The notes under the pieces were generated by a model, which was not told where the DNA came from, made no database searches, and saw only the letters and a program-made list of their open reading frames with translations. Shown here piece after piece: positions 43,037 through 62,502 of a stretch of DNA of 64,000 bases. The DNA is from an uncultured Enterobacteriaceae bacterium. GTDB lineage: Bacteria > Pseudomonadota > Gammaproteobacteria > Burkholderiales > SG8-39. Every line of letters begins with the position of its first letter. Position 1 is the first letter of the stretch. Both the position numbers and the translations under genes were made by a program. Location: contig CAYMVA010000127.1 in NCBI GenBank assembly GCA_964393745.1, positions 2,046-66,045 on the forward strand, given 5' to 3'.

Positions 43037-46000
43037 ATGGCGCGCCTCGGTTTCGATCTTTCATTCGAGCAGCTCTACCGGCGCGACGGCCTGGAGCGCG
43101 TGGACGCGGCGTTCCTGCAGTTCCTCGGCGAAGCCGATGCGCCGCTGCGCGATCGGCTGCTCGCGGCGCGCGCCAACCCGCAACGGCTCGCCGCCAAATC
43201 CGAATCCGATCTGCTGATCGCGCTTGCGCCGCATCTGGACGACTTTCTCGCGCGGCTGTTCGCGATCGAGGCCGAAGCGCAGGCGCTGGCCGCGCGCCAC
43301 CACAACTTCGCCCCGCTGTATTCGGTCAAGCGCCTGTTCGTGCAGCGCCGCGCCTTGCACAAGGTCAAGCCCGAGGAGGCCGCGGCGCTAGACGGCACCG
43401 CAGTGGAACAGGAACTGCGCGCGCTGTTCGACGGGCAGTTCACCGAGCTCGCGTTCGCGCGCCACGTCACCGAATGGCAGAAAGACGAGGCCGCCAATGG
43501 CGGGCGGCTCGAGCTCGCGGCGCGCTACGCGGCTTGGGCTGCGACCACGCCCGAAGGTAGGGCCAAGCACCGTGGCGGCGTGCTTTTCAAGGCGCCGCGC
43601 AAGCTCGACTACATGCGCCTGGTGCCGGTGAAAACCGACGACTCGCGCGGCTACGCGCGCCATTCGCTCGCGCACCTGCGGCGCCGCGAGGGTTTCGCGC
43701 TTACCGATCCGGGAACGGACCTCGTGGGCGCGCTCGACCAGGCGAACTACTGCATCTGGTGCCACGAGCAGGGCAAGGACTCCTGCTCCAAGGGGCTGAA
43801 AGAGAAGGCGCCGGCGACCGGCTACCGCAAGTCGCCGCTGGGGACCGCGCTCGCCGGCTGCCCGCTGGAGGAGAAGATCTCCGAGTTCCATCTGGTCAAG
43901 GCGCGCGGCCAGGCGCTCGCCGCGCTGGCGATGATCTGCGTCGATAATCCGATGGTCGCCGCCACCGGCCACCGCATCTGCAACGACTGCATGAAGGCCT
44001 GCATCTACCAGAAGCAGGAGCCGGTCGATATCCCGCAGGCGGAGACGCGGACCCTCAAGGACATACTCGGGCTGCCCTGGGGCTTCGAGATTTACTCGCT
44101 GCTCACGCGTTGGAACCCGCTCAACGTGCACCGCCCGCTGCCGTTGCCGGACACAGGCCGCAAGGTGCTGGTGGTAGGCCTCGGCCCCGCTGGCTTCACG
44201 CTGGCGCACCACTTGATGAACGACGGCCACACCGTGGTCGGCATCGACGGCCTCAAGATCGAGCCTCTGCCGGCAGCGCTCTCTGGCGTGGACGCGCTCA
44301 GCCGGCGCTTGGCGTTCGAGCCGGTGCGCGATGCGCTCGATCTCTACGAGCCGCTCGACAAGCGCGCCATGGCCGGCTTCGGCGGCGTCGCCGAGTACGG
44401 CATCCCGGTGCGCTGGGACAAGAACTTCCTCAAGCTGGTGCGGCTGCTGCTCGAGCGCCGCGCCGAGTTCGCCATGTTCGGCGGCGTGCGCTTCGGCGGC
44501 ACGCTCGCGCTCGAGGACGCCTGGGCGCTCGGCTTCGACCATGTCGCGCTATGCGTCGGTGCGGGCGGCCCCACGGTGCTCGACATTCCCAACGGCCTGG
44601 CGCGCGGCGTGCGCGCCGCCTCCGACTTCCTCATGGCGCTGCAATTGACCGGCGCGGCGAAGCAGGATTCGATCGCCAACATGCAGCTGCGCCTGCCGGT
44701 GGTGGTGATCGGCGGCGGGCTCACGGCGATCGACGCCGCCACCGAGTCGCTCGCCTACTACGTGGCGCAGGTGGAGAAATTCCTCGCGCACTACGAGGCG
44801 CTTTCGAAGGAGAGCGGCGAGGACGCGATCCGCGCCGGCTGGGACGACTACGAGCGCGAGATCGCCGAGGAATTCCTGGCGCACGCGCGCGCGATCCGCG
44901 GCGAGCGCCGGGAGGCAGCGCGCGAAGGCCACGCGCCGCGCATCGTGGAGCTGTTGCAGCACTGGGGCGGGGTGACGATCGCCTACCGCCGGCGCCTCGT
45001 GGACAGCCCCTCTTACACGCTCAACCACGAGGAGGTGGAGAAAGCGCTCGAGGAAGGCATCTGGTTCGCCGAGAACCTCGCTCCCGTCGCCGTCGATGTG
45101 GACCACTACGGCGCGGCGCGCGGCATCCGCCTCAAGCACGCGCCCAGCGGCAAGGAGCACTGGCTCCCCGCGCACACGGTGTTCGTCGCCGCGGGCACGC
45201 AGCCGAACACGGTGCTCGCGCGCGAGCACGCGACAGAGTTCACGCTGGACGGGAAGTATTTCGCCGCTTGCGACGAAGCGGGCAATCCGGTCAAGCCGCA
45301 GCCCTCCACTTCCAAGCCCGATGCGGTACGCGTGCTGCTCTCGCGGCAGGCCGACGGCCGCTGCGTCAGCTTCTTCGGTGACGTGCATCCGTCCTATTTC
45401 GGCAACGTCGTCAAGGCGATGGGCTCGGCGAAGCAGGGCTACCCAGTGGTGTCGCGCGTGCTCGGCGCGCGCGCGCCCGCAAGCAATGCGTCGCGCCAAC
45501 CATTTTTCGCCGCGCTCGCCGGCCAGCTCGTGGCGACGGTCGAGCGCGTAGAGCGCCTCACGCCTACGATCGTAGAGGTCGTGATGCGCGCGCCGCTCGC
45601 CGCACGCAAATTCCGTCCCGGCCAGTTCTACCGGCTGCAGAACTTCGAGTCGCTCGCCCCCGTGGTGCACGGCACGCGCATGCAGATGGAAGGCCTCGCC
45701 ATGACCGGCGCCTGGATGGACCGCGACCAGGGCCTGGTGTCGATCATCGCGCTCGAGATGGGCGGCTCGAGCGACCTGTGCGCGATGCTGCAGCCGGGCG
45801 AGCCGGTGATCCTGATGGGACCTACCGGCGCGCCTACCGAAACTCCCGGCGGCGAGACCGTGGTGCTGTGCGGCGGCGGGCTGGGCAACGCGGTGCTGTT
45901 CTCGATCGGCGCCGCGTTCCGCGCCGCCGGCTCGAAGGTGCTTTATTTCGCCGGCTACAAGAAGGTGCAGGACCGCTACAAGGTAAGCGAGATCGAGAAC

Positions 46001-46507
46001 GCCGCCGACGTCGTGGTCTGGTGCTGCGACGAGCAGCCCGGCTTCGAGCCGCGCCGGACGCAGGCCCTGCGCGTCATCGGCAACATCGTGCAGGCGATGG
46101 CCGCCTATGCCGCAGGGCGCCTGGGCAAGCCCGCGATCCGGCTCGAGGACGCCGACCGCATCATCGCCATCGGCTCCGACAGGATGATGGCGGCGGTGGC
46201 GCGCGCACGCCACGACCTGCTCAAGGGCCACCTCAACCCGCGCCACGTCGCCATCGGCTCGATCAATTCGCCGATGCAATGCATGATGAAGGAGATCTGC
46301 GCGCAGTGCCTGCAGCCGCACCGCGACCCGCAGACCGGCGAGACCAGCTACGTGTTCTCCTGCTTCAACCAGGACCAGCCCCTCGACCGCGTCGAGTTCG
46401 GCGTGCTGAACGATCGCCTGAAGCAGAACTCCCTCGCCGAGAAGCTCACCGCGAAGTGGCTGCGGCATTGCATGCCGGAGCTGAAGAAACAGCGTAAATT
46501 TGTGTAG
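43037..46507 (+). CDS. Large fused iron-sulfur flavoprotein: unknown N-domain + GltD/NfnB-like pyridine-nucleotide oxidoreductase + PyrK/NfnA-like FAD/NAD(P) 2Fe-2S domain
   Basis: 1156-aa ORF. Cys clusters CIWCHEQGKDSC and CNDCMKAC; two Rossmann motifs (VVGLGPAGF, VIGGGLTAID). The C-terminal ferredoxin-reductase-like part has PGQFYRL and CGGGLGNAVL, plus a terminal Cys motif CMMKEICAQC...SC. The first 230 aa or so match nothing I recognise. Confidence 0.8.
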   Translation: MARLGFDLSFEQLYRRDGLERVDAAFLQFLGEADAPLRDRLLAARANPQRLAAKSESDLLIALAPHLDDFLARLFAIEAEAQALAARHHNFAPLYSVKRLFVQRRALHKVKPEEAAALDGTAVEQELRALFDGQFTELAFARHVTEWQKDEAANGGRLELAARYAAWAATTPEGRAKHRGGVLFKAPRKLDYMRLVPVKTDDSRGYARHSLAHLRRREGFALTDPGTDLVGALDQANYCIWCHEQGKDSCSKGLKEKAPATGYRKSPLGTALAGCPLEEKISEFHLVKARGQALAALAMICVDNPMVAATGHRICNDCMKACIYQKQEPVDIPQAETRTLKDILGLPWGFEIYSLLTRWNPLNVHRPLPLPDTGRKVLVVGLGPAGFTLAHHLMNDGHTVVGIDGLKIEPLPAALSGVDALSRRLAFEPVRDALDLYEPLDKRAMAGFGGVAEYGIPVRWDKNFLKLVRLLLERRAEFAMFGGVRFGGTLALEDAWALGFDHVALCVGAGGPTVLDIPNGLARGVRAASDFLMALQLTGAAKQDSIANMQLRLPVVVIGGGLTAIDAATESLAYYVAQVEKFLAHYEALSKESGEDAIRAGWDDYEREIAEEFLAHARAIRGERREAAREGHAPRIVELLQHWGGVTIAYRRRLVDSPSYTLNHEEVEKALEEGIWFAENLAPVAVDVDHYGAARGIRLKHAPSGKEHWLPAHTVFVAAGTQPNTVLAREHATEFTLDGKYFAACDEAGNPVKPQPSTSKPDAVRVLLSRQADGRCVSFFGDVHPSYFGNVVKAMGSAKQGYPVVSRVLGARAPASNASRQPFFAALAGQLVATVERVERLTPTIVEVVMRAPLAARKFRPGQFYRLQNFESLAPVVHGTRMQMEGLAMTGAWMDRDQGLVSIIALEMGGSSDLCAMLQPGEPVILMGPTGAPTETPGGETVVLCGGGLGNAVLFSIGAAFRAAGSKVLYFAGYKKVQDRYKVSEIENAADVVVWCCDEQPGFEPRRTQALRVIGNIVQAMAAYAAGRLGKPAIRLEDADRIIAIGSDRMMAAVARARHDLLKGHLNPRHVAIGSINSPMQCMMKEICAQCLQPHRDPQTGETSYVFSCFNQDQPLDRVEFGVLNDRLKQNSLAEKLTAKWLRHCMPELKKQRKFV

Positions 46508-46528: not shown

Positions 46529-47350
46529 ATGCCCGCCTACGCCAGGCCGACCCGCGTCGATGAAGCGCTGAAAGTACTTGCGCAGGGCGGTTGCGCGGTG
46601 CTCGCCGGCGGCACCGACCACTACCCGGCGCGGGTAGGGCGCGCGCCCGACGAAGACATCCTCGACCTCACCGCGATCCGCGAGCTGCGCGGCATCGCCG
46701 AGCGGCGTGACCACTGGCGTATCGGCGCGACCACCACCTGGACGGAGGTGATCGAAGCGAAGCTGCCGCCGCTGTTCGATTGCCTGAAATATGCGGCCCG
46801 CGAAGTAGGCGGCATGCAGATCCAGAACGCGGGCACGGTGGCCGGAAATCTATGCAACGCCTCGCCCGCCGCGGACGGCGTGCCGCCGCTGCTCGCGCTG
46901 GGCGCCAGCGTAGAACTCGCCAGCATTCAACGAAAGCGCACGCTGCCGCTTGCCGAGTTCATCACCGGCCCGAGGAAAACGGCACTGCGCCCGGGCGAGC
47001 TGCTGAGCGCGGTGCTGGTGCCGAAGCCCAAGCACGCCGCTCGCAGCGGCTTCCTCAAGCTCGGCGCGCGCAAGTATCTCGTCATTTCCATCGCCATGGC
47101 GGCCGGGGTGATCGAGCGCGATGGCGGCATCGTGCGCGCGGCGCGCATCGCCGTGGGTGCGTGCTCGCCCGTGGCGAAGCGGCTACCGGCGCTCGAAGCG
47201 GCGTTGATCGGCAAGCCGCTGAGCAGCGATCTGGCGCGGCCCGAGCATCTGGCGGTGCTCGCGCCGATCGACGACGTCCGCGGCAGCGCCGGGTATCGCA
47301 GCGAAGCAGCGCTGGTGCTGGTGCGCCGATTGTTGGACGAGCTCGCATGA
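46529..47350 (+). CDS. Xanthine dehydrogenase family FAD-binding subunit (CoxM/XdhB-like)
   Basis: 273-aa ORF with FAD_binding_5-type motifs (LAGGTD, NAGTVAGNLCNASPAAD) and a C-terminal CO-dehydrogenase flavoprotein domain (DVRGSAGYR). Confidence 0.9.
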   Translation: MPAYARPTRVDEALKVLAQGGCAVLAGGTDHYPARVGRAPDEDILDLTAIRELRGIAERRDHWRIGATTTWTEVIEAKLPPLFDCLKYAAREVGGMQIQNAGTVAGNLCNASPAADGVPPLLALGASVELASIQRKRTLPLAEFITGPRKTALRPGELLSAVLVPKPKHAARSGFLKLGARKYLVISIAMAAGVIERDGGIVRAARIAVGACSPVAKRLPALEAALIGKPLSSDLARPEHLAVLAPIDDVRGSAGYRSEAALVLVRRLLDELA

Positions 47351-50091
47351 ACAAGCCTCGCGCCAAATTCCTCGCCGAGGCGGTTGCCTTCACCGTCAAC
47401 GGCCGCAAGGTGCGCGCCACTTCCGCGCGCGCCGCCCGCCTCGCCGACGTGCTGCGCGACGAGCTCGGCCTCACCGGCACCAAGATCGGCTGCAACGCCG
47501 GCGATTGCGGCGCCTGCACCGTGCTGCTCGATGGCCGCCAGGTGTGCTCGTGCCTCACCGCACTCGGCCAGGTCGAGGGCCGCGAAGTCCTGACCGTCGA
47601 AGGCCTCGCCGCGAAGGGAAAACTTTCCGACCTGCAGGCAGCGTTCCAGAACCACGGCGCTGCGCAGTGCGGCATCTGCACGCCGGCCATGCTGATCGCT
47701 GCGGCGGATCTGCTTGCGCGCAATCCGGACCCAGATGCCGCCGAGGTCCGGGACGCGCTCGGTGGCGTGCTGTGTCGCTGCACCGGCTACCAGAAGATCG
47801 TAGAGGCCGTGCTGGCGGCAAAGTGTAAAGTCACACTTTACACTTTGCCCGCTGCAGGCCGGGCGGTCGGGGCGCGCGCCGGCAAGGTGGACGGCATTGC
47901 CAAGCTCAATGGCACCGAGCGCTACGGCGCCGATGCGATCCCGGCGGACGCGCTCTGGCTGCGCGTCATGCGCTCGCCGCACCATCGCGCGCGCTTCCGC
48001 TTCGGCAACCTCGACGCCTGGCGCCGCGGCCTGCCGGGCATCGAGCGGCTGCTCACCGCTGCCGATGTGCCCTCGAACGGCTTCGGCATCTATCCGCACA
48101 TCAAGGACCAGCCGGTGCTCGCCGCAGGCGAAGCGCGTTTCCGCGGCGAAGCGGTGGCCGCGGTGATCGGCAGCCGCGAAGCGATCGAGCGGCTCGATGC
48201 GAATGCTTTCCCGGTGAGCTGGGAGCCGCTCGAACCGGTGCTAGGCCTCGATGCGGCGATGGCGCCCAAAGCGCCGCGCGTTCAGCCAAACAAACCGGAC
48301 AACTTGCTGCTCGATGGCGGCGTGAGGAAAGGCGATCCCGCCTCCGCATGGGCGCAATGCGCAGCGATCGCGGAGGCGAGCTTCGAGACCGCGTTTGTTG
48401 AGCATGCCTACATCGAGCCCGAAGCCGGCTGGGCGCGGCGCGTCGGCCACCGGATCGAGATCCATGTCTCCACGCAGACGCCTTACATGGACCGCGACGA
48501 GACCGCGCTGGTGATGAAGCTCGAGCCCGAGCAGGTGCGGATCGTGCCGAGCGCGTGCGGCGGCGGCTTCGGCGGCAAGCTCGACATGGCGGTGCAGCCG
48601 CTTATCGCGCTCGGCGCCTGGCTCACGCGCAAGCCCGTCGCCTGCGTGTACACGCGTCCCGAGAGCATGGCTTCGAGCACCAAGCGCCACCCGGCGCGCA
48701 TCCACGCCAAGTTCGGCTGCGATGAGCGCGGGCGATTGCTCGCCTGCGAAATGGATGCGCTCTTCGACACCGGCGCCTACGCTAGCTGGGGTCCGACGGT
48801 CGCGACGCGGGTCCCGATCCACGCCACCGGCCCCTACCTCGTGCCGCACGTAAAGACGCGCGGTCGCGCCTACTTCACGCATTGCCATCCGTCGGGCGCG
48901 TTCCGCGGCTTCGGCGTGCCGCAGGGCGCGATCGCGCACGAAGCGCTCATGGATGAGCTCGCCGACGGCATCGGCATGGACCGGCTCGAGTTCCGGCGCG
49001 TGAACGCGCTCAAAGCGGGTGACGCCACCGCCACCGGCCAGGTGCTCGAGCATTCCGCCGGGCTCGCCGAGTGCCTCGATGCGCTCGAGCCGCATTGGCG
49101 CCGCGCCAGGCGCGAGTGCGAAACGTTCAATGCGAAGCACGCGACGCGCAAGCGCGGCGCCGGCATCGGCTGCATGTGGTACGGCATCGGCAACACCTCG
49201 CTTTCCAACCCTTCGACGATACGCGCCGCCATCCGGCCCGACTGTAAAGTCACGCTTTACAGTGGCGCGGTGGACATCGGCCAGGGCTGCAGCACCACCC
49301 TCACCCAGGTGTGCGCCGATGCGCTCGGCCTGCCGATGCAGGATTTCCACCTCGTCATGGGCGATACCGATCTCACGGCCGACGCGGGCAAGACCTCTGC
49401 CTCGCGCCAAGCCTTCGTCTCGGGCAAGGCGGCCGAGCTCGCGGGGCTGGATCTGCGTCAGAAACTCTTCGCCGCCGCCGGCGCTCCGAACGGCGCATGG
49501 CGCGACCGCGACTACCGGCTCTCGCTCGAAGGCGGCAAGCTGGTGTTCCGCAAAGGTGGCATCACCCATCGCGTGAAGCTGCGCGAGCAATTGATAGGTG
49601 AAGGCTACTTCGATCCTCCGACCAAGCCCTCGGACGCCGACGGACAGGGCGTTCCCTACGCCACTTATGCGTTCGCCGCGCAGGTCGCCGTGGTCGAGGT
49701 GGATCTCGAACTGGGCACCACCAAGGTGCTGCGCATCCACGCCGCGCACGATGTCGGCCGCGCGCTCAACCCGATCCAGGTCGAGGGCCAGATCCAGGGC
49801 GGCGCGGCGCAAGGACTCGGCATGGCGCTAATGGAGGAGTACGTTCCAGGCAAGACCGAGAACCTGCACGACTACCTGATCCCGACCATCGGCGACATGC
49901 CGCAATTCGATTGCATCCTGGTGGAGGACCCCGAGCCGCTCGGTCCCTACGGCGCCAAGGGCGTTGGCGAGCCGGGGTTGATTCCGACCGCGCCGGCGAT
50001 CCTCGGTGCGATCGAGCACGCCACCGGCGTGCGCATGCGCCGCGTACCCGTGCTGCCGCATCGCTTATTGGCAGCGCTGAAAGCCAAATGA
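47347..50091 (+). CDS. Fused [2Fe-2S] + molybdopterin-binding hydroxylase subunit (xanthine dehydrogenase / aldehyde oxidoreductase family)
   Basis: ATG 47347 overlaps the upstream stop (ATGA). The N-terminal part carries two 2Fe-2S motifs (CNAGDCGACTV, CGICTPAM...CRCTGY). A linker of about 12 aa is encoded by a palindromic repeat, followed by a MoCo domain (..GGGFGGK.., ..DIGQG..). About 914 aa as read in this sequence. Confidence 0.85.
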   Translation: MNKPRAKFLAEAVAFTVNGRKVRATSARAARLADVLRDELGLTGTKIGCNAGDCGACTVLLDGRQVCSCLTALGQVEGREVLTVEGLAAKGKLSDLQAAFQNHGAAQCGICTPAMLIAAADLLARNPDPDAAEVRDALGGVLCRCTGYQKIVEAVLAAKCKVTLYTLPAAGRAVGARAGKVDGIAKLNGTERYGADAIPADALWLRVMRSPHHRARFRFGNLDAWRRGLPGIERLLTAADVPSNGFGIYPHIKDQPVLAAGEARFRGEAVAAVIGSREAIERLDANAFPVSWEPLEPVLGLDAAMAPKAPRVQPNKPDNLLLDGGVRKGDPASAWAQCAAIAEASFETAFVEHAYIEPEAGWARRVGHRIEIHVSTQTPYMDRDETALVMKLEPEQVRIVPSACGGGFGGKLDMAVQPLIALGAWLTRKPVACVYTRPESMASSTKRHPARIHAKFGCDERGRLLACEMDALFDTGAYASWGPTVATRVPIHATGPYLVPHVKTRGRAYFTHCHPSGAFRGFGVPQGAIAHEALMDELADGIGMDRLEFRRVNALKAGDATATGQVLEHSAGLAECLDALEPHWRRARRECETFNAKHATRKRGAGIGCMWYGIGNTSLSNPSTIRAAIRPDCKVTLYSGAVDIGQGCSTTLTQVCADALGLPMQDFHLVMGDTDLTADAGKTSASRQAFVSGKAAELAGLDLRQKLFAAAGAPNGAWRDRDYRLSLEGGKLVFRKGGITHRVKLREQLIGEGYFDPPTKPSDADGQGVPYATYAFAAQVAVVEVDLELGTTKVLRIHAAHDVGRALNPIQVEGQIQGGAAQGLGMALMEEYVPGKTENLHDYLIPTIGDMPQFDCILVEDPEPLGPYGAKGVGEPGLIPTAPAILGAIEHATGVRMRRVPVLPHRLLAALKAK
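47821..47855. repeat. 35-nt AT-rich palindromic junction element, copy A (inside the 2Fe-2S/MoCo linker)
   Basis: aagTGTAAAGTcacACTTTACActttgcccgctgc has 9-bp perfect arms (47823..47843). It is 32/35 identical to 60717..60751. Confidence 0.85.
49242..49262. repeat. Related 21-nt perfect palindrome inside the MoCo-domain coding sequence
   Basis: CTGTAAAG-tcacg-CTTTACAG. The core tgtaaagtcacNctttaca differs from copy A at one position and encodes the same CKVTLY peptide. Confidence 0.8.
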
Positions 50092-51581
50092 GCAACCCGC
50101 TCGACGCACGAGATCCGGAAGACGCACTGGCGCCGGATAGCGGCACGCTCGGCGGCGACGTCATCCGCTGCGACGCCTGCCCGGTGCTGTGCCGCATTCG
50201 CAAGGGGCAAAGCGGCGCCTGCGACCGCTACGCCAACGAGAACGGCAAACTGGTGCGCCTCGACCCGCTGCTGATCCTTCAGCGTGGCAGCGCGGCGGTG
50301 CCGTTCCTCGAGCCCGGCAAGCCTTGGGACGGCAAGCTGATCTCCGCGTCGAACACCTTCGTCACCGGGGTCGGCGCAACCACCACCTACCCCGACTACA
50401 AACCCGCGCCGTTCATCGTCGCCTCTAAATTCGAAGGCGTGGACGTGGTGACGGTGGTCACCGAGGGGATTTTTTCCTACTGCGGCCTGAAGGTGAAGAT
50501 CGACACCGACCGCTTTCTCGGCCCCGAGCAGGCGGCGGTGCGCGTCGCAGGCGAGCAGATCGGGCACGTCACCACCGCGGAATACGGCTCGCAGATGCTG
50601 TCGCTCGGCGGCGTGCGCCACCTCACCGGCGGCTCGAAGAAGGAAGGCACGGTCACCTGCGAGGCGCTGCTCAAGCTCTCCAATAAGGAGGCGGTAGAAC
50701 TGCAGGTGGACGGCGGCACCACAGTGCGGGTGCAGGCGGGCGAGGCGCCGGTGGTGAATGGCGCACACGAGGCGCGCATGCGGGTGGGCTGCGGCAGCGC
50801 CACCATCGGTATCTTCGCCAAGCAGTGGCACGGCCATGCCGACGAGGTGATCGTAGTGGACGACCACATCACCGGCGTGCTCACCGAGCACCAAGCCGGG
50901 CGTTTCCTCGACATGCGGCCGGCCGGTATCCGCGTGCGCGGCCGCAAGTCCACGCCGGGGCGCTATTTCAAGGTCGCCGAGCCAGGCATGGGCTGGGGCG
51001 GCACCGACATCACCGATCCGCTCGCGATCGTGGAGAAAATAGATCCCAAAACCGCCTGGCCGGGAATGCGTCTGCTGATGGTCTCGACTACCGGCGAGGA
51101 CGCCGAATGGTTCGTGCTCGACGAAGCGCTCAAGCCGCGGAAAGCGCCGATGCCCGAGCCGGTGCGCAAAGTGGTGGAGCGCATCGCGGAGAACTGCGAG
51201 CCGGCGCTGTGCACGGTGCTGTTCATGGGCGGCGCCGGCGGCTCGCTGCGCGCCGGCGTGACCGAGAACCCGGTGCGCCTTACGCGCTCGGTGAAGGAAC
51301 TGATCACGCGCGTCACCTGCGGCGGTGCGCCGGTTTACGTCTGGCCCGGCGGCGGCATCACCGTGATGGTGGACGTGCTGCGCATGCCGGAGCGCTCTTT
51401 CGGCTACGTGCCGACGCCCGCGCTGGTGCTGCCGATCGAATTCACGCTGCCGCTCGCTGCCTATGGCGCGATGGGCGGGCATATGGATCGCGTCGTTACA
51501 CTGGACGAGGCGCTGCGCCGCGCCGAGTTCAAGTCGGAGCCCTGGCGCGAAGCAAATCCCTGGCCCGTAGGCAAAGCATGA
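50088..51581 (+). CDS. 6-hydroxynicotinate-reductase-like Fe-S protein (family assignment from memory, unverified)
   Basis: ATG 50088 overlaps the upstream stop (ATGA). About 497 aa with an N-terminal Cys cluster CDACPVLCRIRKGQSGAC. I recognise the sequence type as the family usually annotated 6-hydroxynicotinate reductase, commonly paired with a UPF0280 gene. Confidence 0.6.
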   Translation: MSNPLDARDPEDALAPDSGTLGGDVIRCDACPVLCRIRKGQSGACDRYANENGKLVRLDPLLILQRGSAAVPFLEPGKPWDGKLISASNTFVTGVGATTTYPDYKPAPFIVASKFEGVDVVTVVTEGIFSYCGLKVKIDTDRFLGPEQAAVRVAGEQIGHVTTAEYGSQMLSLGGVRHLTGGSKKEGTVTCEALLKLSNKEAVELQVDGGTTVRVQAGEAPVVNGAHEARMRVGCGSATIGIFAKQWHGHADEVIVVDDHITGVLTEHQAGRFLDMRPAGIRVRGRKSTPGRYFKVAEPGMGWGGTDITDPLAIVEKIDPKTAWPGMRLLMVSTTGEDAEWFVLDEALKPRKAPMPEPVRKVVERIAENCEPALCTVLFMGGAGGSLRAGVTENPVRLTRSVKELITRVTCGGAPVYVWPGGGITVMVDVLRMPERSFGYVPTPALVLPIEFTLPLAAYGAMGGHMDRVVTLDEALRRAEFKSEPWREANPWPVGKA

Positions 51582-52435
51582 GTGGTCCCGTCCACGCAAT
51601 CCTCCCCGGCGGCCGGCTGCACCTGCAGCACGGTCCCATCGACTTGGTGATCGAAGCCTGGGGTGAGCAGCACGAGGTCGCCACCGCCTACGAGCAGGCG
51701 TGGCAGCACTTTCACGACATCCTGGGGACGCTGGTCGCGGAGTTGCCGCTTCTGCGCGCGGCGGTCGGTGCGGCCTATCCGCTCGCGCGCGGGCCAGTGG
51801 CGCGCCGCATGGTCGCGGCGGTCTGGCCGCTCCGCGAAGTGTTCATCACGCCGATGGCGGCGGTCGCCGGCAGCGTCGCCGACGAAATTCTCGCCGCGCT
51901 GTGCGCGGGTAGGCGCCTCGACAAGGCATTTGTGAACGACGGCGGCGACATCGCGCTGCATCTCGCGCCGCATCAACGCCTCGATACCGGGATCGTGGCC
52001 GATCCGCGCCGTCCCATGCTCTGCGGCAGCGTGTGCGTGGAGGCGAGCGACCCGGTGCGCGGCATCGCCACCTCCGGTTGGCGTGGGCGCTCGCAGTCGC
52101 TCGGCATCGCCGACGCCGTGACCGTGCTCGCGCGCAGCGCGGCGATGGCCGACGCCGCCGCGACGCTGGTCGCCAACGCGGTCAACGCAGAGCACCCGGC
52201 GATCCGCCGGCTGCCGGCGCGGCAAGTCAAGGAGGACAGCGACCTCGGCGAGCTGCCGGTGACCGTCGCGGTCGGGCCCCTGCCGCCCGGGATGGCGGAG
52301 GCTGCGCTAGACTCTGGCTTGAGAGTTGCCGAGGCGCTCAGGGGGCGCGGACTGCTGCACACCGCTTTCCTGTCGCTGCAGCAGCAAACGCAAGTGCTTA
52401 GGATGAGCAACCTTCCGCTCACCGTTCAGAACTGA
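51578..52435 (+). CDS. UPF0280 family protein (ApbE-like fold)
   Basis: ATG 51578 overlaps the upstream stop (ATGA). About 285 aa with the ITPMAAVAGSVADEI motif typical of the UPF0280/ApbE-like superfamily. Confidence 0.7.
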   Translation: MSGPVHAILPGGRLHLQHGPIDLVIEAWGEQHEVATAYEQAWQHFHDILGTLVAELPLLRAAVGAAYPLARGPVARRMVAAVWPLREVFITPMAAVAGSVADEILAALCAGRRLDKAFVNDGGDIALHLAPHQRLDTGIVADPRRPMLCGSVCVEASDPVRGIATSGWRGRSQSLGIADAVTVLARSAAMADAAATLVANAVNAEHPAIRRLPARQVKEDSDLGELPVTVAVGPLPPGMAEAALDSGLRVAEALRGRGLLHTAFLSLQQQTQVLRMSNLPLTVQN

Positions 52436-58140: not shown

Positions 58141-58437
58141 ATGGACCGCGTGCTGCCGATTTCCGAAGTGAAAGCAAGGCTTCCCGAACTGGTCTCCGAC
58201 GTCCAGGACAAGGACGAGACCATCATCGTCACGCGCAACGGCCGGCCTGCCGCGGTGCTGGTCAATCACGCCGAGTACGAGAGTCTCAAGGAAACGCTCG
58301 ACGTGCTGAGCGACCCCGACCTGATGAACCAGATCCGCGAAAGCCGCGCCTATTACCGCGCGGGCGGCAAGGGCCTCTCGTTCGAGGACGTGTTCGGCGA
58401 GCCTCTCGTCCCGGCGAGGCGCCGTCGCCGGAAATGA
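58141..58437 (+). CDS. Type II antitoxin, Phd/YefM family
   Basis: 98-aa ORF starting MDRVLPISEVKARLPELVSDVQDKDETIIVTRNGRPAAVLV..., a canonical Phd/YefM N-terminal domain. It overlaps the toxin gene by 4 nt. Confidence 0.88.
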   Translation: MDRVLPISEVKARLPELVSDVQDKDETIIVTRNGRPAAVLVNHAEYESLKETLDVLSDPDLMNQIRESRAYYRAGGKGLSFEDVFGEPLVPARRRRRK

Positions 58438-58718
58438 GTCTTTATCGAGTCGAGATCCCGCCCCGGGTCGCCGAGTTCATCCGCCATCTCGAACCGCAGC
58501 TGAAGCAGAGGATCCGGGCGGCGCTGCGCACGCTGGCAGCCGATCCCGCGCGCGGCGAACCCTTGAAGAGGGACCTCAGTGAATATCGCAAATACCGGGT
58601 GGGACGCTTCCGGATCGTGTACGCGCGGGACGCAAAAGGCCGGGTTGTCCGCATCATGGCTGTGGGCCAGCGGCGCAGGGTCTACGAAGAACTGGCAAGG
58701 ATGGTGAAGGCGCGATGA
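58434..58718 (+). CDS. Type II toxin, RelE/ParE family
   Basis: 94-aa ORF with ..YRKYRVGRFRIVYARDAKGRVVRIMAVGQRRRVYE.., typical of the RelE/ParE fold. It sits directly downstream of the antitoxin. Confidence 0.85.
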   Translation: MSLYRVEIPPRVAEFIRHLEPQLKQRIRAALRTLAADPARGEPLKRDLSEYRKYRVGRFRIVYARDAKGRVVRIMAVGQRRRVYEELARMVKAR

Positions 58719-60724
58719 ACTGGATCGCTGGCGTCGACGTAGGCGGCACCTTCACCGACCTGATCGCGCTCGACGCCGCCTCGGGCGAGATGCGCCTCGC
58801 CAAGGTGCCGACTACGCCGGGCAACCAGGCTTTCGGCGTGCTCGCCGCGCTCGACGAGGTGAAGCTCGCGCTCGACCAGCTCGCGCTGGTGGTACATGGC
58901 ACGACCACCACCACCAACGCGCTGCTCGAGCGCAAGCTCGCGAAAACCGGGCTCGTCACCACCAAGGGCTTTCGCGACGTGCTCGAGCTCGGCCGGCGCA
59001 CGCGCCCCAGCCCCTACGGACTGCGCGGCTGGTTCGAGCCCCTGATCCCGCGCGAGCTGCGGCTGGAAGTCGCCGGCCGCATGGACGCCGAAGGTGCCGA
59101 GGTGACGCCGCTAGACGAGGCAGCGGTGCACGATGCGGTGAAACGGCTTGCCACCGCGGGTTGCGAGTCGCTGGTGATCCATTTCCTGCACAGCTACATC
59201 AATCCTGCGCACGAGCAGCGCGCGCTCGCGATAGCGCGCGAGCTGTGGCCCAACCGCTACATCACCGCAGGCCACACCCTGCTGTCCGAATACCGCGAAT
59301 ACGAGCGCGGCGTCACCGCCGCGGTGAACGCCTCGGTGCAGCCGATTCTCGACCGCTACCTGAAGAAACTCTCGGAAGAACTGAAAGCACGCGGCTTCGC
59401 CAATGACCTGCTCGTGATGCAGGGCAACGGCGGCACGGTCTCGGCTGCGCTCGCCACCGACGCCGCGGTGAACACCGTCATGTCGGGCCCCGCCTCCGGC
59501 GTGATCGCTGCTGCCTACTCGTCCGCTGCAGCCGGCTACCCGCACGCGATCAGCTACGACATGGGCGGCACCTCGACCGACGTCGGCTTGATCCTCGAGG
59601 GGGTGCCGCAGGTGTCCTCCGAGCTCGAGATCGAATACGCGATGCCGGTGCACGTGCCGATGGTGGACGTGCACTCCATCGGCGCCGGCGGCGGCTCGAT
59701 CGCGTTTCTCGGCGAGGACGGCATGTTGAAGGTCGGGCCGCGCAGCGCCGGCGCGCATCCCGGCCCGATCTGCTACGGCCGCGGCGGCACCGAGCCCACC
59801 ATTACCGATGCCAACCTGCTGCTCGGCCGGCTGAACCCGGAGAAGCTGCTTGGCGTCAGCGGCCGCGCCGACCTTAAGGCGATCGGGACAATCTTTCTTG
59901 ATAAGCTCGGCCGGCCCCTCGGCCTCGATGCCACGGAGACCGCCGCCGCGATCGTGCGCATCGCCAACGACAAGATGGCGGGCGCGATCCGCATGGTGTC
60001 GCTCGCGCGCGGCCACGACCCGCGCGACTTCGTGCTGTTTCCGTTCGGCGGCGCAGGCCCGCTGCACGCCGCCGCGCTCGCGCGCGAACTCGGCATCCCG
60101 AAGCTGCTGGTGCCGGCGCGCCCCGGCATCACCAACGCGCTCGGCTGCGTGGTCGCCGATTTGCGGCACGACTACGTGAACACGGTGAACAAGCCCGTCG
60201 AGGCCGTAACCGCCGGGGAAATCGCCGCCATCCTCAAAGCGCAGATCGAAAGCGGCAAGCGGCTGCTCGAGCGCGAAGGCGTCGCCATCGAGGGCGTGCG
60301 CCTGCTGCACTCGGCCGACATGCAGTTCCAGGGCCAGAGCCACATCCTCAGCGTCGCGCTTCCCGGGACCGAGGTCTCGCGCGAGCAGCTGCAGGCGTTG
60401 TTCGATCGCGCCTACTGGAATCGCTTCGAAGTCGAGCTGCCCGAAATCCGCGCCGTGCTCGTCAATTTGCATACCGCGGTGATCGGCCTGCGGCCGCGTT
60501 TCGACCTGGGGATTCTTTCCGGCAAGCGCGCCGCAGCCGCCGCGGCGCAGCGCGAGGTGTGGTTCGATGGCGGTTGGCGCAAGACGCCGGTCTACCGGCG
60601 CGAAAACCTGCCCGCTGCGCTCGACGGCCCGGCGATCATCGAGCAGCTCGACTGCACCACCGTGCTCGAACCCGGCAACCGGGCGCGCGTCGACGCGCTC
60701 GGCAACCTGCTGGTCGAAGTGTAA
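58715..60724 (+). CDS. Hydantoinase/oxoprolinase family protein, A subunit (HyuA-like, ATP-dependent)
   Basis: 669-aa ORF starting IAGVDVGGTFTDLIA, with later DMGGTSTDV motifs of the hydantoinase_A family. The ATG overlaps the toxin stop (ATGA). Confidence 0.9.
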   Translation: MNWIAGVDVGGTFTDLIALDAASGEMRLAKVPTTPGNQAFGVLAALDEVKLALDQLALVVHGTTTTTNALLERKLAKTGLVTTKGFRDVLELGRRTRPSPYGLRGWFEPLIPRELRLEVAGRMDAEGAEVTPLDEAAVHDAVKRLATAGCESLVIHFLHSYINPAHEQRALAIARELWPNRYITAGHTLLSEYREYERGVTAAVNASVQPILDRYLKKLSEELKARGFANDLLVMQGNGGTVSAALATDAAVNTVMSGPASGVIAAAYSSAAAGYPHAISYDMGGTSTDVGLILEGVPQVSSELEIEYAMPVHVPMVDVHSIGAGGGSIAFLGEDGMLKVGPRSAGAHPGPICYGRGGTEPTITDANLLLGRLNPEKLLGVSGRADLKAIGTIFLDKLGRPLGLDATETAAAIVRIANDKMAGAIRMVSLARGHDPRDFVLFPFGGAGPLHAAALARELGIPKLLVPARPGITNALGCVVADLRHDYVNTVNKPVEAVTAGEIAAILKAQIESGKRLLEREGVAIEGVRLLHSADMQFQGQSHILSVALPGTEVSREQLQALFDRAYWNRFEVELPEIRAVLVNLHTAVIGLRPRFDLGILSGKRAAAAAAQREVWFDGGWRKTPVYRRENLPAALDGPAIIEQLDCTTVLEPGNRARVDALGNLLVEV

Positions 60725-60751
60725 AGTGAGACTTTACACTTTGGCCGCTGC
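60717..60751. repeat. 35-nt AT-rich palindromic junction element, copy C (hyuA stop / hyuA-hyuB spacer)
   Basis: aagTGTAAAGTgagACTTTACActttggccgctgc has 9-bp perfect arms (60719..60739). The hyuA stop codon TAA (60722..60724) lies in the left arm. Confidence 0.85.
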
Positions 60752-60777: not shown

Positions 60778-62502
60778 ATGACACCGATGCTCGACCCGAT
60801 CACCCTCGCCGTGATCCAGAACGGCCTGCAGCAGGTGTGCAACGAGATGGATTTGGCGTTCTGCCGCGCGGCGTTCTCGCCCGTGATCTCGGAGGGCATG
60901 GACCGCTCCGACGGCATCTACGCGCGCGACGACGGGGCGCTGATCGCGCAGGGCGAGCTCGGGCTGCCGGTGTTCGTAGGCACAATGCAGTTCTCGACGC
61001 GCGTGCTGAGCGAGATGGTGCGGCAAAAGGGCTGGACGCTCGACCCGGGCGACGTGTTCATCGTCAACGACCCCTACCTCGGCGGCACGCACCTGATGGA
61101 CGTGCGCTTCGTGAAGCCGTTCTTCTACCGCGGGCAGCACTGGTGCTGGCTCTCGAACACCGGCCACTGGCCGGACCTGGGCGGCATGGTGCCGGGCGGA
61201 TTCTCCGCCAACGCCACCGAAGTCGAGCAGGAAGGGCTGCGCCTGCCGCCGGTGAAGCTCTACAAGAAGGGCATCATGGACGAGGAGATCCTCGCCATCA
61301 TCCTTTCCAACATCCGCATCGCCGACCAGCGCATCGGCGACATCAAGGCGCAAGGCGCCGCGCTCGCCATCGGCGAGAAGCGGCTCACGGCGCTCTTGGA
61401 CCGCTACGGCGCCGAGACCGTGGAGGCGGCAATCGCCGAGCTGCGCACGCGCGCCGCTCAACAGATGCGCGCCAAGATCTCGAAGATTCCGCTCGGAACC
61501 TATAACGGCCACTCGATCGTGGACTCCGACGGAGTGGTGAACGAGCCGCTGCACATCCGCCTCAAGCTGACCAAGACCGCGGACAACGATTTGGTGTTCG
61601 ATTTTGCGGGCTCCTCGCCGCCTTGCCGCGGTCCCATGAATTCGGTGCTCGCGACCACGCTTTCGTCGGTCTATCTCGCGGTGAAGCACGTCTTTCCCGA
61701 GGTGCCGATCAACGCCGGCACCTACGAGCCGCTCAAGGTGATCGAGCCCGAGGGCACGTTTCTGTACGCGAAGTACCCGCGGCCGGTATCGGGCTGCGCC
61801 GCCGAGGTAAGCCAGCGAATCGCCGAAGCCGTGTTTAACGCGCTCACGCAGGCGATTCCGGATGATCTCTTCGCCGCCCCGGCTGGCACCTCGGGCAATC
61901 TCGCCATCGGCGGCAGCGATCCGAAGCGCGGGCGCTCCTACGTGCTTTACCTCTTTACCGGCGGCGGCTACGGCGGCAGCCCGGTGTCGGACGGCATTTC
62001 CAACGGCTGCTCTACTATCGGCATCTCCAAGATGCCTCCGGTGGAGGTGATGGAGCAGTATTACCCGGTGCTGTTCGAGGAGTTCGCGATCAACGAGGGC
62101 TCGGGCGGCGCGGGCGAAGCGCGCGGCGGCTTTGGCGTCAACTACTCGATCCGCGTGCGCCGCGGCGAGGCGCGCGCCTCGATGGTGATGGACCACGGCC
62201 GCACCGGGCCGCTGGGCGCGCTCGGCGGCGCCGACGGCGGCGTCAACAAGGTGGCGATCGAGCGCAACGGCGAGCGCTACCAGCCGCCGCACCTGTCCAA
62301 GGACCAGGACATCCAGATGCAGCCCGGCGACCTGATCCGCGTCTCGACCCCGGGCGGCGGCGGCTACGGCGATCCGTCGAAGCGCGACCCCACCAAGGTG
62401 GCGCGCGACGTGATGCGCGGTTACTACTCCAATGCGGAAGCCGAGAAACTCTTCGGCGTGCGTTTCAATCCCGACGGCAGCGCCTACCGGCTAGCCGAGT
62501 GA
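60778..62502 (+). CDS. Hydantoinase B/oxoprolinase family protein (HyuB-like)
   Basis: Starts MTPMLDPITLAVIQNGLQQVCNEM.., typical of the hydantoinase_B N-terminus. ATG 60778 is preferred over the tracked TTG 60766. Confidence 0.9.
   Translation: MTPMLDPITLAVIQNGLQQVCNEMDLAFCRAAFSPVISEGMDRSDGIYARDDGALIAQGELGLPVFVGTMQFSTRVLSEMVRQKGWTLDPGDVFIVNDPYLGGTHLMDVRFVKPFFYRGQHWCWLSNTGHWPDLGGMVPGGFSANATEVEQEGLRLPPVKLYKKGIMDEEILAIILSNIRIADQRIGDIKAQGAALAIGEKRLTALLDRYGAETVEAAIAELRTRAAQQMRAKISKIPLGTYNGHSIVDSDGVVNEPLHIRLKLTKTADNDLVFDFAGSSPPCRGPMNSVLATTLSSVYLAVKHVFPEVPINAGTYEPLKVIEPEGTFLYAKYPRPVSGCAAEVSQRIAEAVFNALTQAIPDDLFAAPAGTSGNLAIGGSDPKRGRSYVLYLFTGGGYGGSPVSDGISNGCSTIGISKMPPVEVMEQYYPVLFEEFAINEGSGGAGEARGGFGVNYSIRVRRGEARASMVMDHGRTGPLGALGGADGGVNKVAIERNGERYQPPHLSKDQDIQMQPGDLIRVSTPGGGGYGDPSKRDPTKVARDVMRGYYSNAEAEKLFGVRFNPDGSAYRLAE

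Follow-up and report, generated by a model that had tools for sequence, protein, structure and literature searches.

The 64,000-nucleotide stretch of contig CAYMVA010000127.1 analyzed here, referred to throughout as the window, harbors three copies of a short, AT-rich palindrome whose arms, TGTAAAGT and ACTTTACA, are separated by a loop of three nucleotides. Two of the copies lie within a gene for an enzyme of the xanthine dehydrogenase (XDH) family, and the other is found at the 3' end of hyuA, a hydantoinase gene. The same palindrome recurs as a dispersed, multi-copy family in other genomes, where it mostly follows closely behind stop codons. On balance, it is probably an untagged element of the repetitive extragenic palindrome (REP)-like type, a 3'-end hairpin predicted to act as an mRNA stabilizer or partial terminator. 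The AT-rich palindromes would then be annotated as a genome-wide 3'-end element, and not as a regulator site of the hydantoinase/XDH-like cluster, and the family would add to the poorly catalogued group of untagged REP-like repeats. Its distinctive feature is the presence of copies in a conserved enzyme gene without insertion, kept by nucleotide-level selection against a strong codon bias. This bears both on the origin of REPs, de novo or by transposition, and on whether such elements function as RNA or as DNA. The novelty is modest; the in-place origin of the copies and the recurrence of the core in Saccharibacteria form the interesting residue.

The palindrome and its dispersed family

The initial annotation described two 35-nucleotide segments, at 47821-47855 and 60717-60751, as identical at 32 of their 35 positions, and this is confirmed. 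Both hold the exact palindrome TGTAAAGT-N3-ACTTTACA. They had also been credited with perfect 9-bp arms, and although the exactness of the pairing stands, the length does not. Copy 1 is a 33-nucleotide perfect palindrome, GGCAAAGTGTAAAGT-CAC-ACTTTACACTTTGCC, with arms of 15 bp (47817-47849) and imperfect pairing that reaches to about 47811-47855. Copy 2, AAGTGTAAAGT-GAG-ACTTTACACTT, has arms of 11 perfect bp (60717-60741) and, with the tail TGGCC, occupies 60717-60746 between hyuA and hyuB, directly at the hyuA 3' end. A third copy had been overlooked. It is found at 49243-49261 as TGTAAAGTCACGCTTTACA, with one A-to-G change, and reads gac-TGTAAAGT-CAC-GCTTTACA-gtg over 49240-49264, inside the MoCoBD_2 domain; no strand is assigned to any of the three. 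Of only four TGTAAA hexamers in the 67%-GC window, three belong to the copies. In 100 shuffles that preserved the dinucleotides of the window, the palindrome pair was never matched, and a chance origin of the matches is excluded. A profile built from 75 family members detects no fourth or degenerate copy in the window.

Copies beyond the locus, on which the initial annotation had made its claim depend, do exist, and the palindrome represents a multi-copy family in other genomes. A scan of genomes gave at least about 20 loci in one 70%-GC metagenome-assembled genome (MAG), as well as copies in contigs of Plesiocystis, Novosphingobium and Myxococcales, although among the matches listed for the 16-base core most were chance ones in AT-rich genomes. 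A scan of metagenomes gave at least 120 loci, with most copies in contigs of 60-75% GC and more than 30 of the contigs coming from a single sample. GC-rich public contigs totaling about 0.6 Mb contain 109 full palindromes and two isolated half-sites (one orthologous pair), against some 2.7 half-sites expected by chance. Copy density in the DNA analyzed is about 1 per 20-80 kb, which by extrapolation would correspond to tens to a few hundred copies per genome. Plasmid and viral collections contain essentially no copies. Rfam gives no relevant match at E<=1 within 44-64 kb of the window, and searches of the literature with TGTAAAGT, ACTTTACA and longer strings return primers and eukaryotic matches only.

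The unbiased family core is A-S-TGTAAAGT-N3-ACTTTACA-S-T, which may also be written A-S-TGTAAAGT-N3-RCTTTACA-S-T. Metagenome copies that resemble those of the window give a consensus for this lineage of GGCAAAG-TGTAAAGT-CAC-ACTTTACA-CTTTGCC. Of 96 unique copies, 50 have CAC or GTG as the loop, and the loops of the others mostly differ from it by a single change. The tail CTTTGSCC is common to copies 1 and 2 because it is part of the family consensus. Copy-to-copy conversion, considered as a source of this shared tail, was set aside for the same reason.

The MAG with some 20 copies is deposited as 'uncultured Enterobacteriaceae bacterium binchicken_co274_117' (CAZVHU01 contigs, 67-72% GC), a family label that is almost certainly wrong. 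Its palindromes lie on contigs L001, L010, L022, L023, L025, L032, L040, L054, L057, L067, L070, L075, L090, L091 and L094, and comparison with the window by blastn and tblastx gives no meaningful homology.

A different arrangement is found in Saccharibacteria MAGs of 33-36% GC. Here, the core palindrome takes the form ttgTGTAAAGT-N3-ACTTTACAcaa and occurs as doublets about 100 nucleotides apart, as at L033:3661/3759, L035:1538/1644, L037:166/274 and L045:7449/7556, and also in L006, L012, L038, L080 and L093. The doublets flank a conserved spacer of about 85 nucleotides (...gggaggcattgatattacttgcttaagagg...aaaatttaaaaa...). Judged by this layout, the whole is a composite repeat resembling REPINs, the paired form of REPs, or miniature inverted-repeat transposable elements (MITEs); it has no match in Rfam.

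Placement at 3' ends and origin without insertion

Copies 1 and 3 lie in a single open reading frame (ORF) of 914 aa (47347..50091, + strand), which Pfam identifies as a member of the xanthine dehydrogenase / aldehyde oxidoreductase family, built as a [2Fe-2S]-hammerhead-MoCo fusion. Copy 1, in the linker that joins the Fer2_2 domain to the hammerhead domain, encodes AKCKVTLYTLP in frame, and copy 3, in the same frame, encodes D-C-K-V-T-L-Y-S. Copy 2 lies at the end of hyuA (58715..60724, + strand; hydantoinase/oxoprolinase A by Pfam and homologues), for which its left arm supplies the TAA stop codon (60722..60724, + strand). The hydantoinase B gene hyuB (60778..62502, + strand; Pfam) begins about 30 nucleotides 3' of the palindrome, its start being inferred from the gene call in L233, a 97%-identical relative. 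The 2Fe-2S/MoCo boundary at which the initial annotation had placed the element, taken there for a junction of cistrons, is a linker between domains of one ORF.

Across the family, with ORFs called by a predictor of our own based on GC content at third codon positions (GC3), copies mostly lie 0-40 nucleotides 3' of stop codons, and about 18 of them donate the TAA stop, as at hyuA. Among intergenic copies with both neighbors classified, 11 are convergent, 8 co-directional and 2 divergent; where only one neighbor could be classified, 25 copies adjoin a 3' end and 10 a 5' end. When all spacers at the same loci are counted, a copy is present in 30.6% of convergent spacers against 7.8% of co-directional and 6.8% of divergent ones. 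This is an enrichment of about fourfold in convergent spacers, and the bias between spacer classes has a chi-square P of 1.4e-4 by number and 0.025 by length. The REP-like size and placement proposed at the outset are supported. The 80 adjacent ORFs represent 94 unrelated Pfam families, and among the top 25 of these there is neither a recurrent family nor a transposase.

Another proposal is that the palindrome is specific to its operon, acting as an operator or translational-coupling signal at the functional-unit junctions of a cluster for N-heterocycle catabolism, and we regard this as very improbable: although three copies stand within 13 kb of one gene cluster while the other 51 kb of the window has none, and although the sites are conserved in orthologous clusters, the genome-wide spread of the element, next to 94 unrelated families in many genomes, has already largely refuted it, copy 3 sits inside a catalytic domain and not at a junction, divergent and hence promoter-bearing spacers are avoided, no regulator gene lies nearby, and the more distant orthologous clusters L104-L107 are without the element. 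Neither a special tie to the junctions of the operon nor an operator for an unseen regulator finds support.

Copies within genes use two stop-free frames, which read either CKVTLY or [S/T]-V-K-x-x-F-T. Those outside the XDH gene all use the second frame and lie mostly at domain boundaries; they are found in PolA, HrpA, MgsA, an acyl-CoA dehydrogenase (ACAD), POR-family, AIRS-family and GNAT proteins, and a NUDIX-ThiE fusion. The in-gene copies are shown to occupy tolerant linkers of real proteins.

The manner in which the coding copies arose can be read from homologues. Those of the fusion protein, of which 120 were listed and aligned (74-93% identical) and 69 displayed, are about 890-935 aa long except for one 5'-truncated entry of 802 aa, and none of the 69 displayed has an insertion or deletion at either XDH-gene site. 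The peptide CKVTLY occurs only in the closest homologues, and at the copy 3 site homologues read DGxLTLY, in GC-rich codons and at equal length. At the level of DNA, TGTAAAGTCAC[A/G]CTTTACA is present at both XDH-gene sites in four orthologues (L099, L100, L101 and L103). In L102, an 80%-identical orthologue, the motif is intact at the copy 3 site only; its first site (about 1320-1345) has a form with five mismatches, GGTGAGGTCACGCGTTACG, in which an A or T of the motif is G at all five positions, and which looks like a decayed (or nascent) copy. Copy 3 is conserved in L099-L103 and in L233, and the latter (93-97% identical) has copies 2 and 3 unchanged from the window. In relatives L104-L107, GC-rich codons of equal length stand in place of the motif.

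Codons within the motif are identical across the five orthologues at 12 of 14 positions, compared with 265 of 572 in the rest of the gene (P=0.003), and they are locally among the rarest, TGT accounting for 3 of 67 codons for Cys and AGT for 1 of 203 for Ser. The absence of length change, together with the conservation of rare synonymous codons, argues that the XDH-gene copies formed in place and that selection on the nucleotide sequence keeps them. The hyuA copy tells a similar story. Many hyuA homologues end in ...LLVEV-stop, and GAA GTG TAA therefore overlays native codons for E-V-stop. Relatives without the copy read GAG GTG TGA agc, which is three transitions from the left arm. In L229, an 88%-identical orthologue, the copy at the hyuA 3' end is kept though different, convergent genes come next. 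As shown by these comparisons, the XDH-gene and hyuA copies came about without change in length and are held by selection on nucleotides. Alignment to solved structures reveals no insertion at the MgsA and ACAD copies, and four additional residues at that of HrpA.

Hairpin in RNA or site in DNA

An RNA-read hairpin is the most likely form of the element. The predicted RNA folds are stable, at -39.9 kcal/mol (z -3.8) for copy 1, -34.7 kcal/mol (z -4.7) for copy 2 and -28.6 kcal/mol (z -3.2) for copy 3. Owing to its A-to-G change, the stem of copy 3 is closed by a U.G pair in the sense RNA. Over the family, variants of the A-to-G or T-to-C kind place the G.U pair on the sense strand in a ratio of 23:5, or about 16:5 with orthologues collapsed (P=0.013). 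In two copies the closing pair is C-G, a compensatory change, and the synonymous changes in the XDH copies both preserve G.U pairing. The proposal of an RNA hairpin at a cistron end is therefore favored by the bias toward 3' ends and convergent spacers, by the sense-strand G.U bias and by the stable folds.

In the mechanism that we propose, by analogy with the REPs of Escherichia coli, the transcribed element would fold into a hairpin of 11-15 bp at the 3' end of the mRNA, where it would protect the upstream cistron from 3'-exonucleolytic decay and attenuate read-through in part. Because the palindrome is perfect, one copy could act for both transcripts where two genes converge. The copy between hyuA and hyuB would favor hyuA mRNA over that of hyuB, whereas the two XDH-gene copies would be internal hairpins that are tolerated or possibly exploited. 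A sequence-specific recognizer of the palindrome is implied, since the arm sequence is invariant, and the element, perfectly symmetric as it is, lends itself well to use as a probe for the recognizing factor.

Several observations weigh against a hairpin of this kind. The outer stem displays no covariation, with 74.1% of its cells paired against 73.7% in shuffles, and what is conserved is the sequence, not merely the structure. On the structural side, the case depends on one pair and on a strand bias that is modest and could also be generated by a transcription-linked asymmetry of mutation. No T-run follows the stem in any of the three window copies and none is flagged as a terminator. The loop, though conserved, is not significantly oriented with respect to the gene (17:10, P=0.25). 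The gene contexts, in turn, are taken from our own predictor and not from an annotation. For REPs themselves, function is context-dependent and debated (bioRxiv 10.64898/2026.03.23.713779). The absence of a T-tail means that the copies are not canonical intrinsic (Rho-independent) terminators; in the family consensus, the palindrome is likewise followed by GC-rich sequence on its 3' side. A long, covarying REP stem extending from the flanks was also considered and was dropped, since a control with mismatched copies and a formal count of pairs revealed no covariation.

The invariance of the arms, combined with the lack of covariation in the outer stem, is what would be expected if the palindrome were instead bound as double-stranded DNA by a sequence-specific dimer, for example a nucleoid-associated, chromosome-organizing or transcription-roadblock protein, at sites that evolve in place under selection as do parS, matS and the Noc and SlmA sites. 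We hold this to be a less probable explanation, with perhaps a one-in-several standing. The 8-N3-8 layout with its variable but biased center agrees with it, as do half-sites that never stand alone and the formation of the XDH-gene and hyuA-stop copies by substitution without insertion or deletion, which is expected of selected binding sites. Recurrence of the core in distant phyla, including Saccharibacteria, would further suggest a conserved recognizing protein. However, the sense-strand G.U bias of 16:5 and the compensatory C-G pairs are unexpected for a symmetric DNA site; the enrichment directly after stops and in convergent spacers contrasts with genome-organizing sites, which are mostly intragenic; and the copies have no linked gene for a candidate protein.

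A somewhat more doubtful idea is that the palindrome has not spread by transposition at all but has been written into existing sequence with no change in length, either by short-patch templated conversion or under strong selection for the site of a conserved protein, whose specificity, TGTAAAGT-N3-ACTTTACA, would be common to organisms from Saccharibacteria through Betaproteobacteria. If true, such in-place writing would let REP-like repeats originate by means other than transposition, and it would settle the question of de novo REP formation.

The converse, that the palindrome is a miniature mobile element of the REP/REPIN or MITE-like kind, copied by a transposase of the RAYT (REP-associated tyrosine transposase) or another type and found at harmless insertion sites, is unlikely, and the small mobile element entertained in the initial annotation is doubtful. 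A dispersed multi-copy family with a master-like consensus that extends to the loop would suit it, as would the REP-like placement, the REPIN-like doublets around their conserved spacer in Saccharibacteria MAGs and the four extra residues at the HrpA copy. Against this, the XDH-gene sites are without insertion in protein and in DNA, where relatives have GC-rich codons of the same length; the hyuA copy overlays a native end of the gene; the MgsA and ACAD alignments are uninterrupted; there is no target duplication; and copies are essentially absent from plasmids and phages. Transposases are likewise missing from the top 25 families adjoining the copies, and no HUH/Y1 transposase is found in 624 kb by a crude, weak regular-expression screen. 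The GTAG/CGTC tag of tagged REPs is present on either flank in at most 6 of 75 copies, and there is no conserved unpaired flank motif.

Known palindromic repeats and the genes of the window

Among DNA sites recognized by regulators, the TyrR box, TGTAAA-N6-TTTACA, has the same outer hexamers as the palindrome, TGTAAA and TTTACA. Its spacing is N6 and its location is in promoters, as opposed to N7 and 3' ends here, and the neighbors of the palindrome are not aromatic amino-acid genes. To our knowledge, none of parS, matS, SBS, NBS, cre, TyrR, NifA-UAS, NtcA, Rex and BirA sites fits in spacing or placement.

REPs are palindromes of 20-40 bp found mainly between unidirectional and convergent ORFs; in convergent spacers, fewer than 20 bp separate them from either 3' end, a stop codon is often supplied by one of their termini, copies inside genes are described for DNA polymerase I, for helicases and for further genes of replication and repair, and families without terminal tags exist but are under-catalogued (Di Nocera et al. 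2013, PMC3733652). The present family resembles them as a small, apparently dispersed palindrome that is placed within a few tens of nucleotides of 3' ends, often donates the stop, occasionally lies in frame inside genes, among them those for DNA polymerase I and an RNA helicase, and is plausibly transcribed and active as an RNA hairpin. In size, it is a palindrome of 23-33 nucleotides with arms of 8-15 bp and a 3-nucleotide loop; in placement, the contrast between convergent and divergent spacers and the 18 or so stop donors are of the REP kind. The copy number, 3 in 64 kb and at least about 20 loci in one MAG, compares with a classical REP threshold of more than 100 per genome, and the copy density is modest. 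The family differs from tagged REPs, which have an imperfect, GC-rich stem, in its perfect symmetry and in an AT-rich core carried by genomes of 67-72% GC. It also differs in having no GTAG/CGTC tag, no RAYT found in the DNA screened and mostly singletons in GC-rich hosts, in place of dimers or bacterial interspersed mosaic elements (BIMEs), with doublets confined to Saccharibacteria. Unlike REPs, too, the intragenic copies examined replace sequence of the same length and are not insertions; nor is the insertion that characterizes a MITE seen, there being no length change at the XDH-gene sites or at hyuA. With the size and placement of REPs but neither a GTAG/CGTC tag nor signs of insertion, the family is filed as untagged REP-like and not with the tagged, RAYT-mobilized super-families.

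In E. coli, a REP acts as a partial terminator and as a stabilizer of upstream mRNA (bioRxiv 10.64898/2026.03.23.713779). Like REP325 of that species, the palindrome stands after the upstream stop in tandem genes, as at hyuA/hyuB, or between convergent genes, and its hairpin is predicted to be able to block 3' decay and attenuate read-through. Its sequence is unrelated to that of REP325, however, and it is also found within coding sequence. In this last respect it recalls the Rickettsia palindromic elements (RPEs), which are in-frame palindromic repeats in tolerant regions of protein genes. RPEs are insertions of 100-150 bp that add residues, whereas the elements described here span 7-11 codons and, in the XDH gene, bring no net change in length. 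DNA uptake sequences, such as the DUS of Neisseria and the uptake signal sequences (USS) of Pasteurellaceae, provide a further likeness in that they arise by substitution, in frame and in tolerant segments, and also form inverted-pair hairpins after genes. They are, however, asymmetric 9-12-mers, mostly single and present at about 1 per kb, while the palindrome is 20-80 times sparser and isolated half-sites are absent. The count of two isolated half-sites to 109 palindromes in 0.6 Mb speaks against a DNA uptake sequence.

By Pfam annotation, the window as a whole is a chromosomal betaproteobacterial region, in which a catabolic and transport cluster comes after the housekeeping genes rseP, dxr, uppS, glnD, ligA, smc, pnp, truB and infB. 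The names of homologues likewise point to a MAG of the Betaproteobacteria/Burkholderiales. Directly upstream of hyuA, and abutting its start, lies a Phd/YefM antitoxin gene (58141-58437; Pfam), followed at about 58434-58715 by a ParE-family toxin gene, as deduced from gene calls in L229 and L233. A toxin-antitoxin pair is thus embedded in the hyuA operon. In relatives, the junction between hyuA and hyuB holds varied small-gene inserts (L104:15946-16588, L106:9955-11340 and L229:2563-3408), which comprise a PIN toxin with its antitoxin, a BrnT toxin with its partner, or two small unassigned ORFs. This junction is a hot spot for the insertion of toxin-antitoxin and other small genes, independent of the palindrome. 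The possibility that copy 2 is the footprint or operator of such a cassette is unlikely, as there are relatives with toxin-antitoxin insertions at this place that lack the motif.

At the head of the catabolic cluster, an ORF of 1156 aa (43037-46507) has only weak matches to Pyr_redox_2 and Fer4_20, in the manner of dihydropyrimidine dehydrogenase, and most of its length is without a match. Downstream of the XDH-like fusion are two conserved genes with no Pfam match, encoding proteins of 497 aa (50088-51581) and 285 aa (51578-52435). An orthologue of the 285-aa gene is tagged PF27030 AbpE_bact in precomputed annotations, and both genes are syntenic in all relatives examined.

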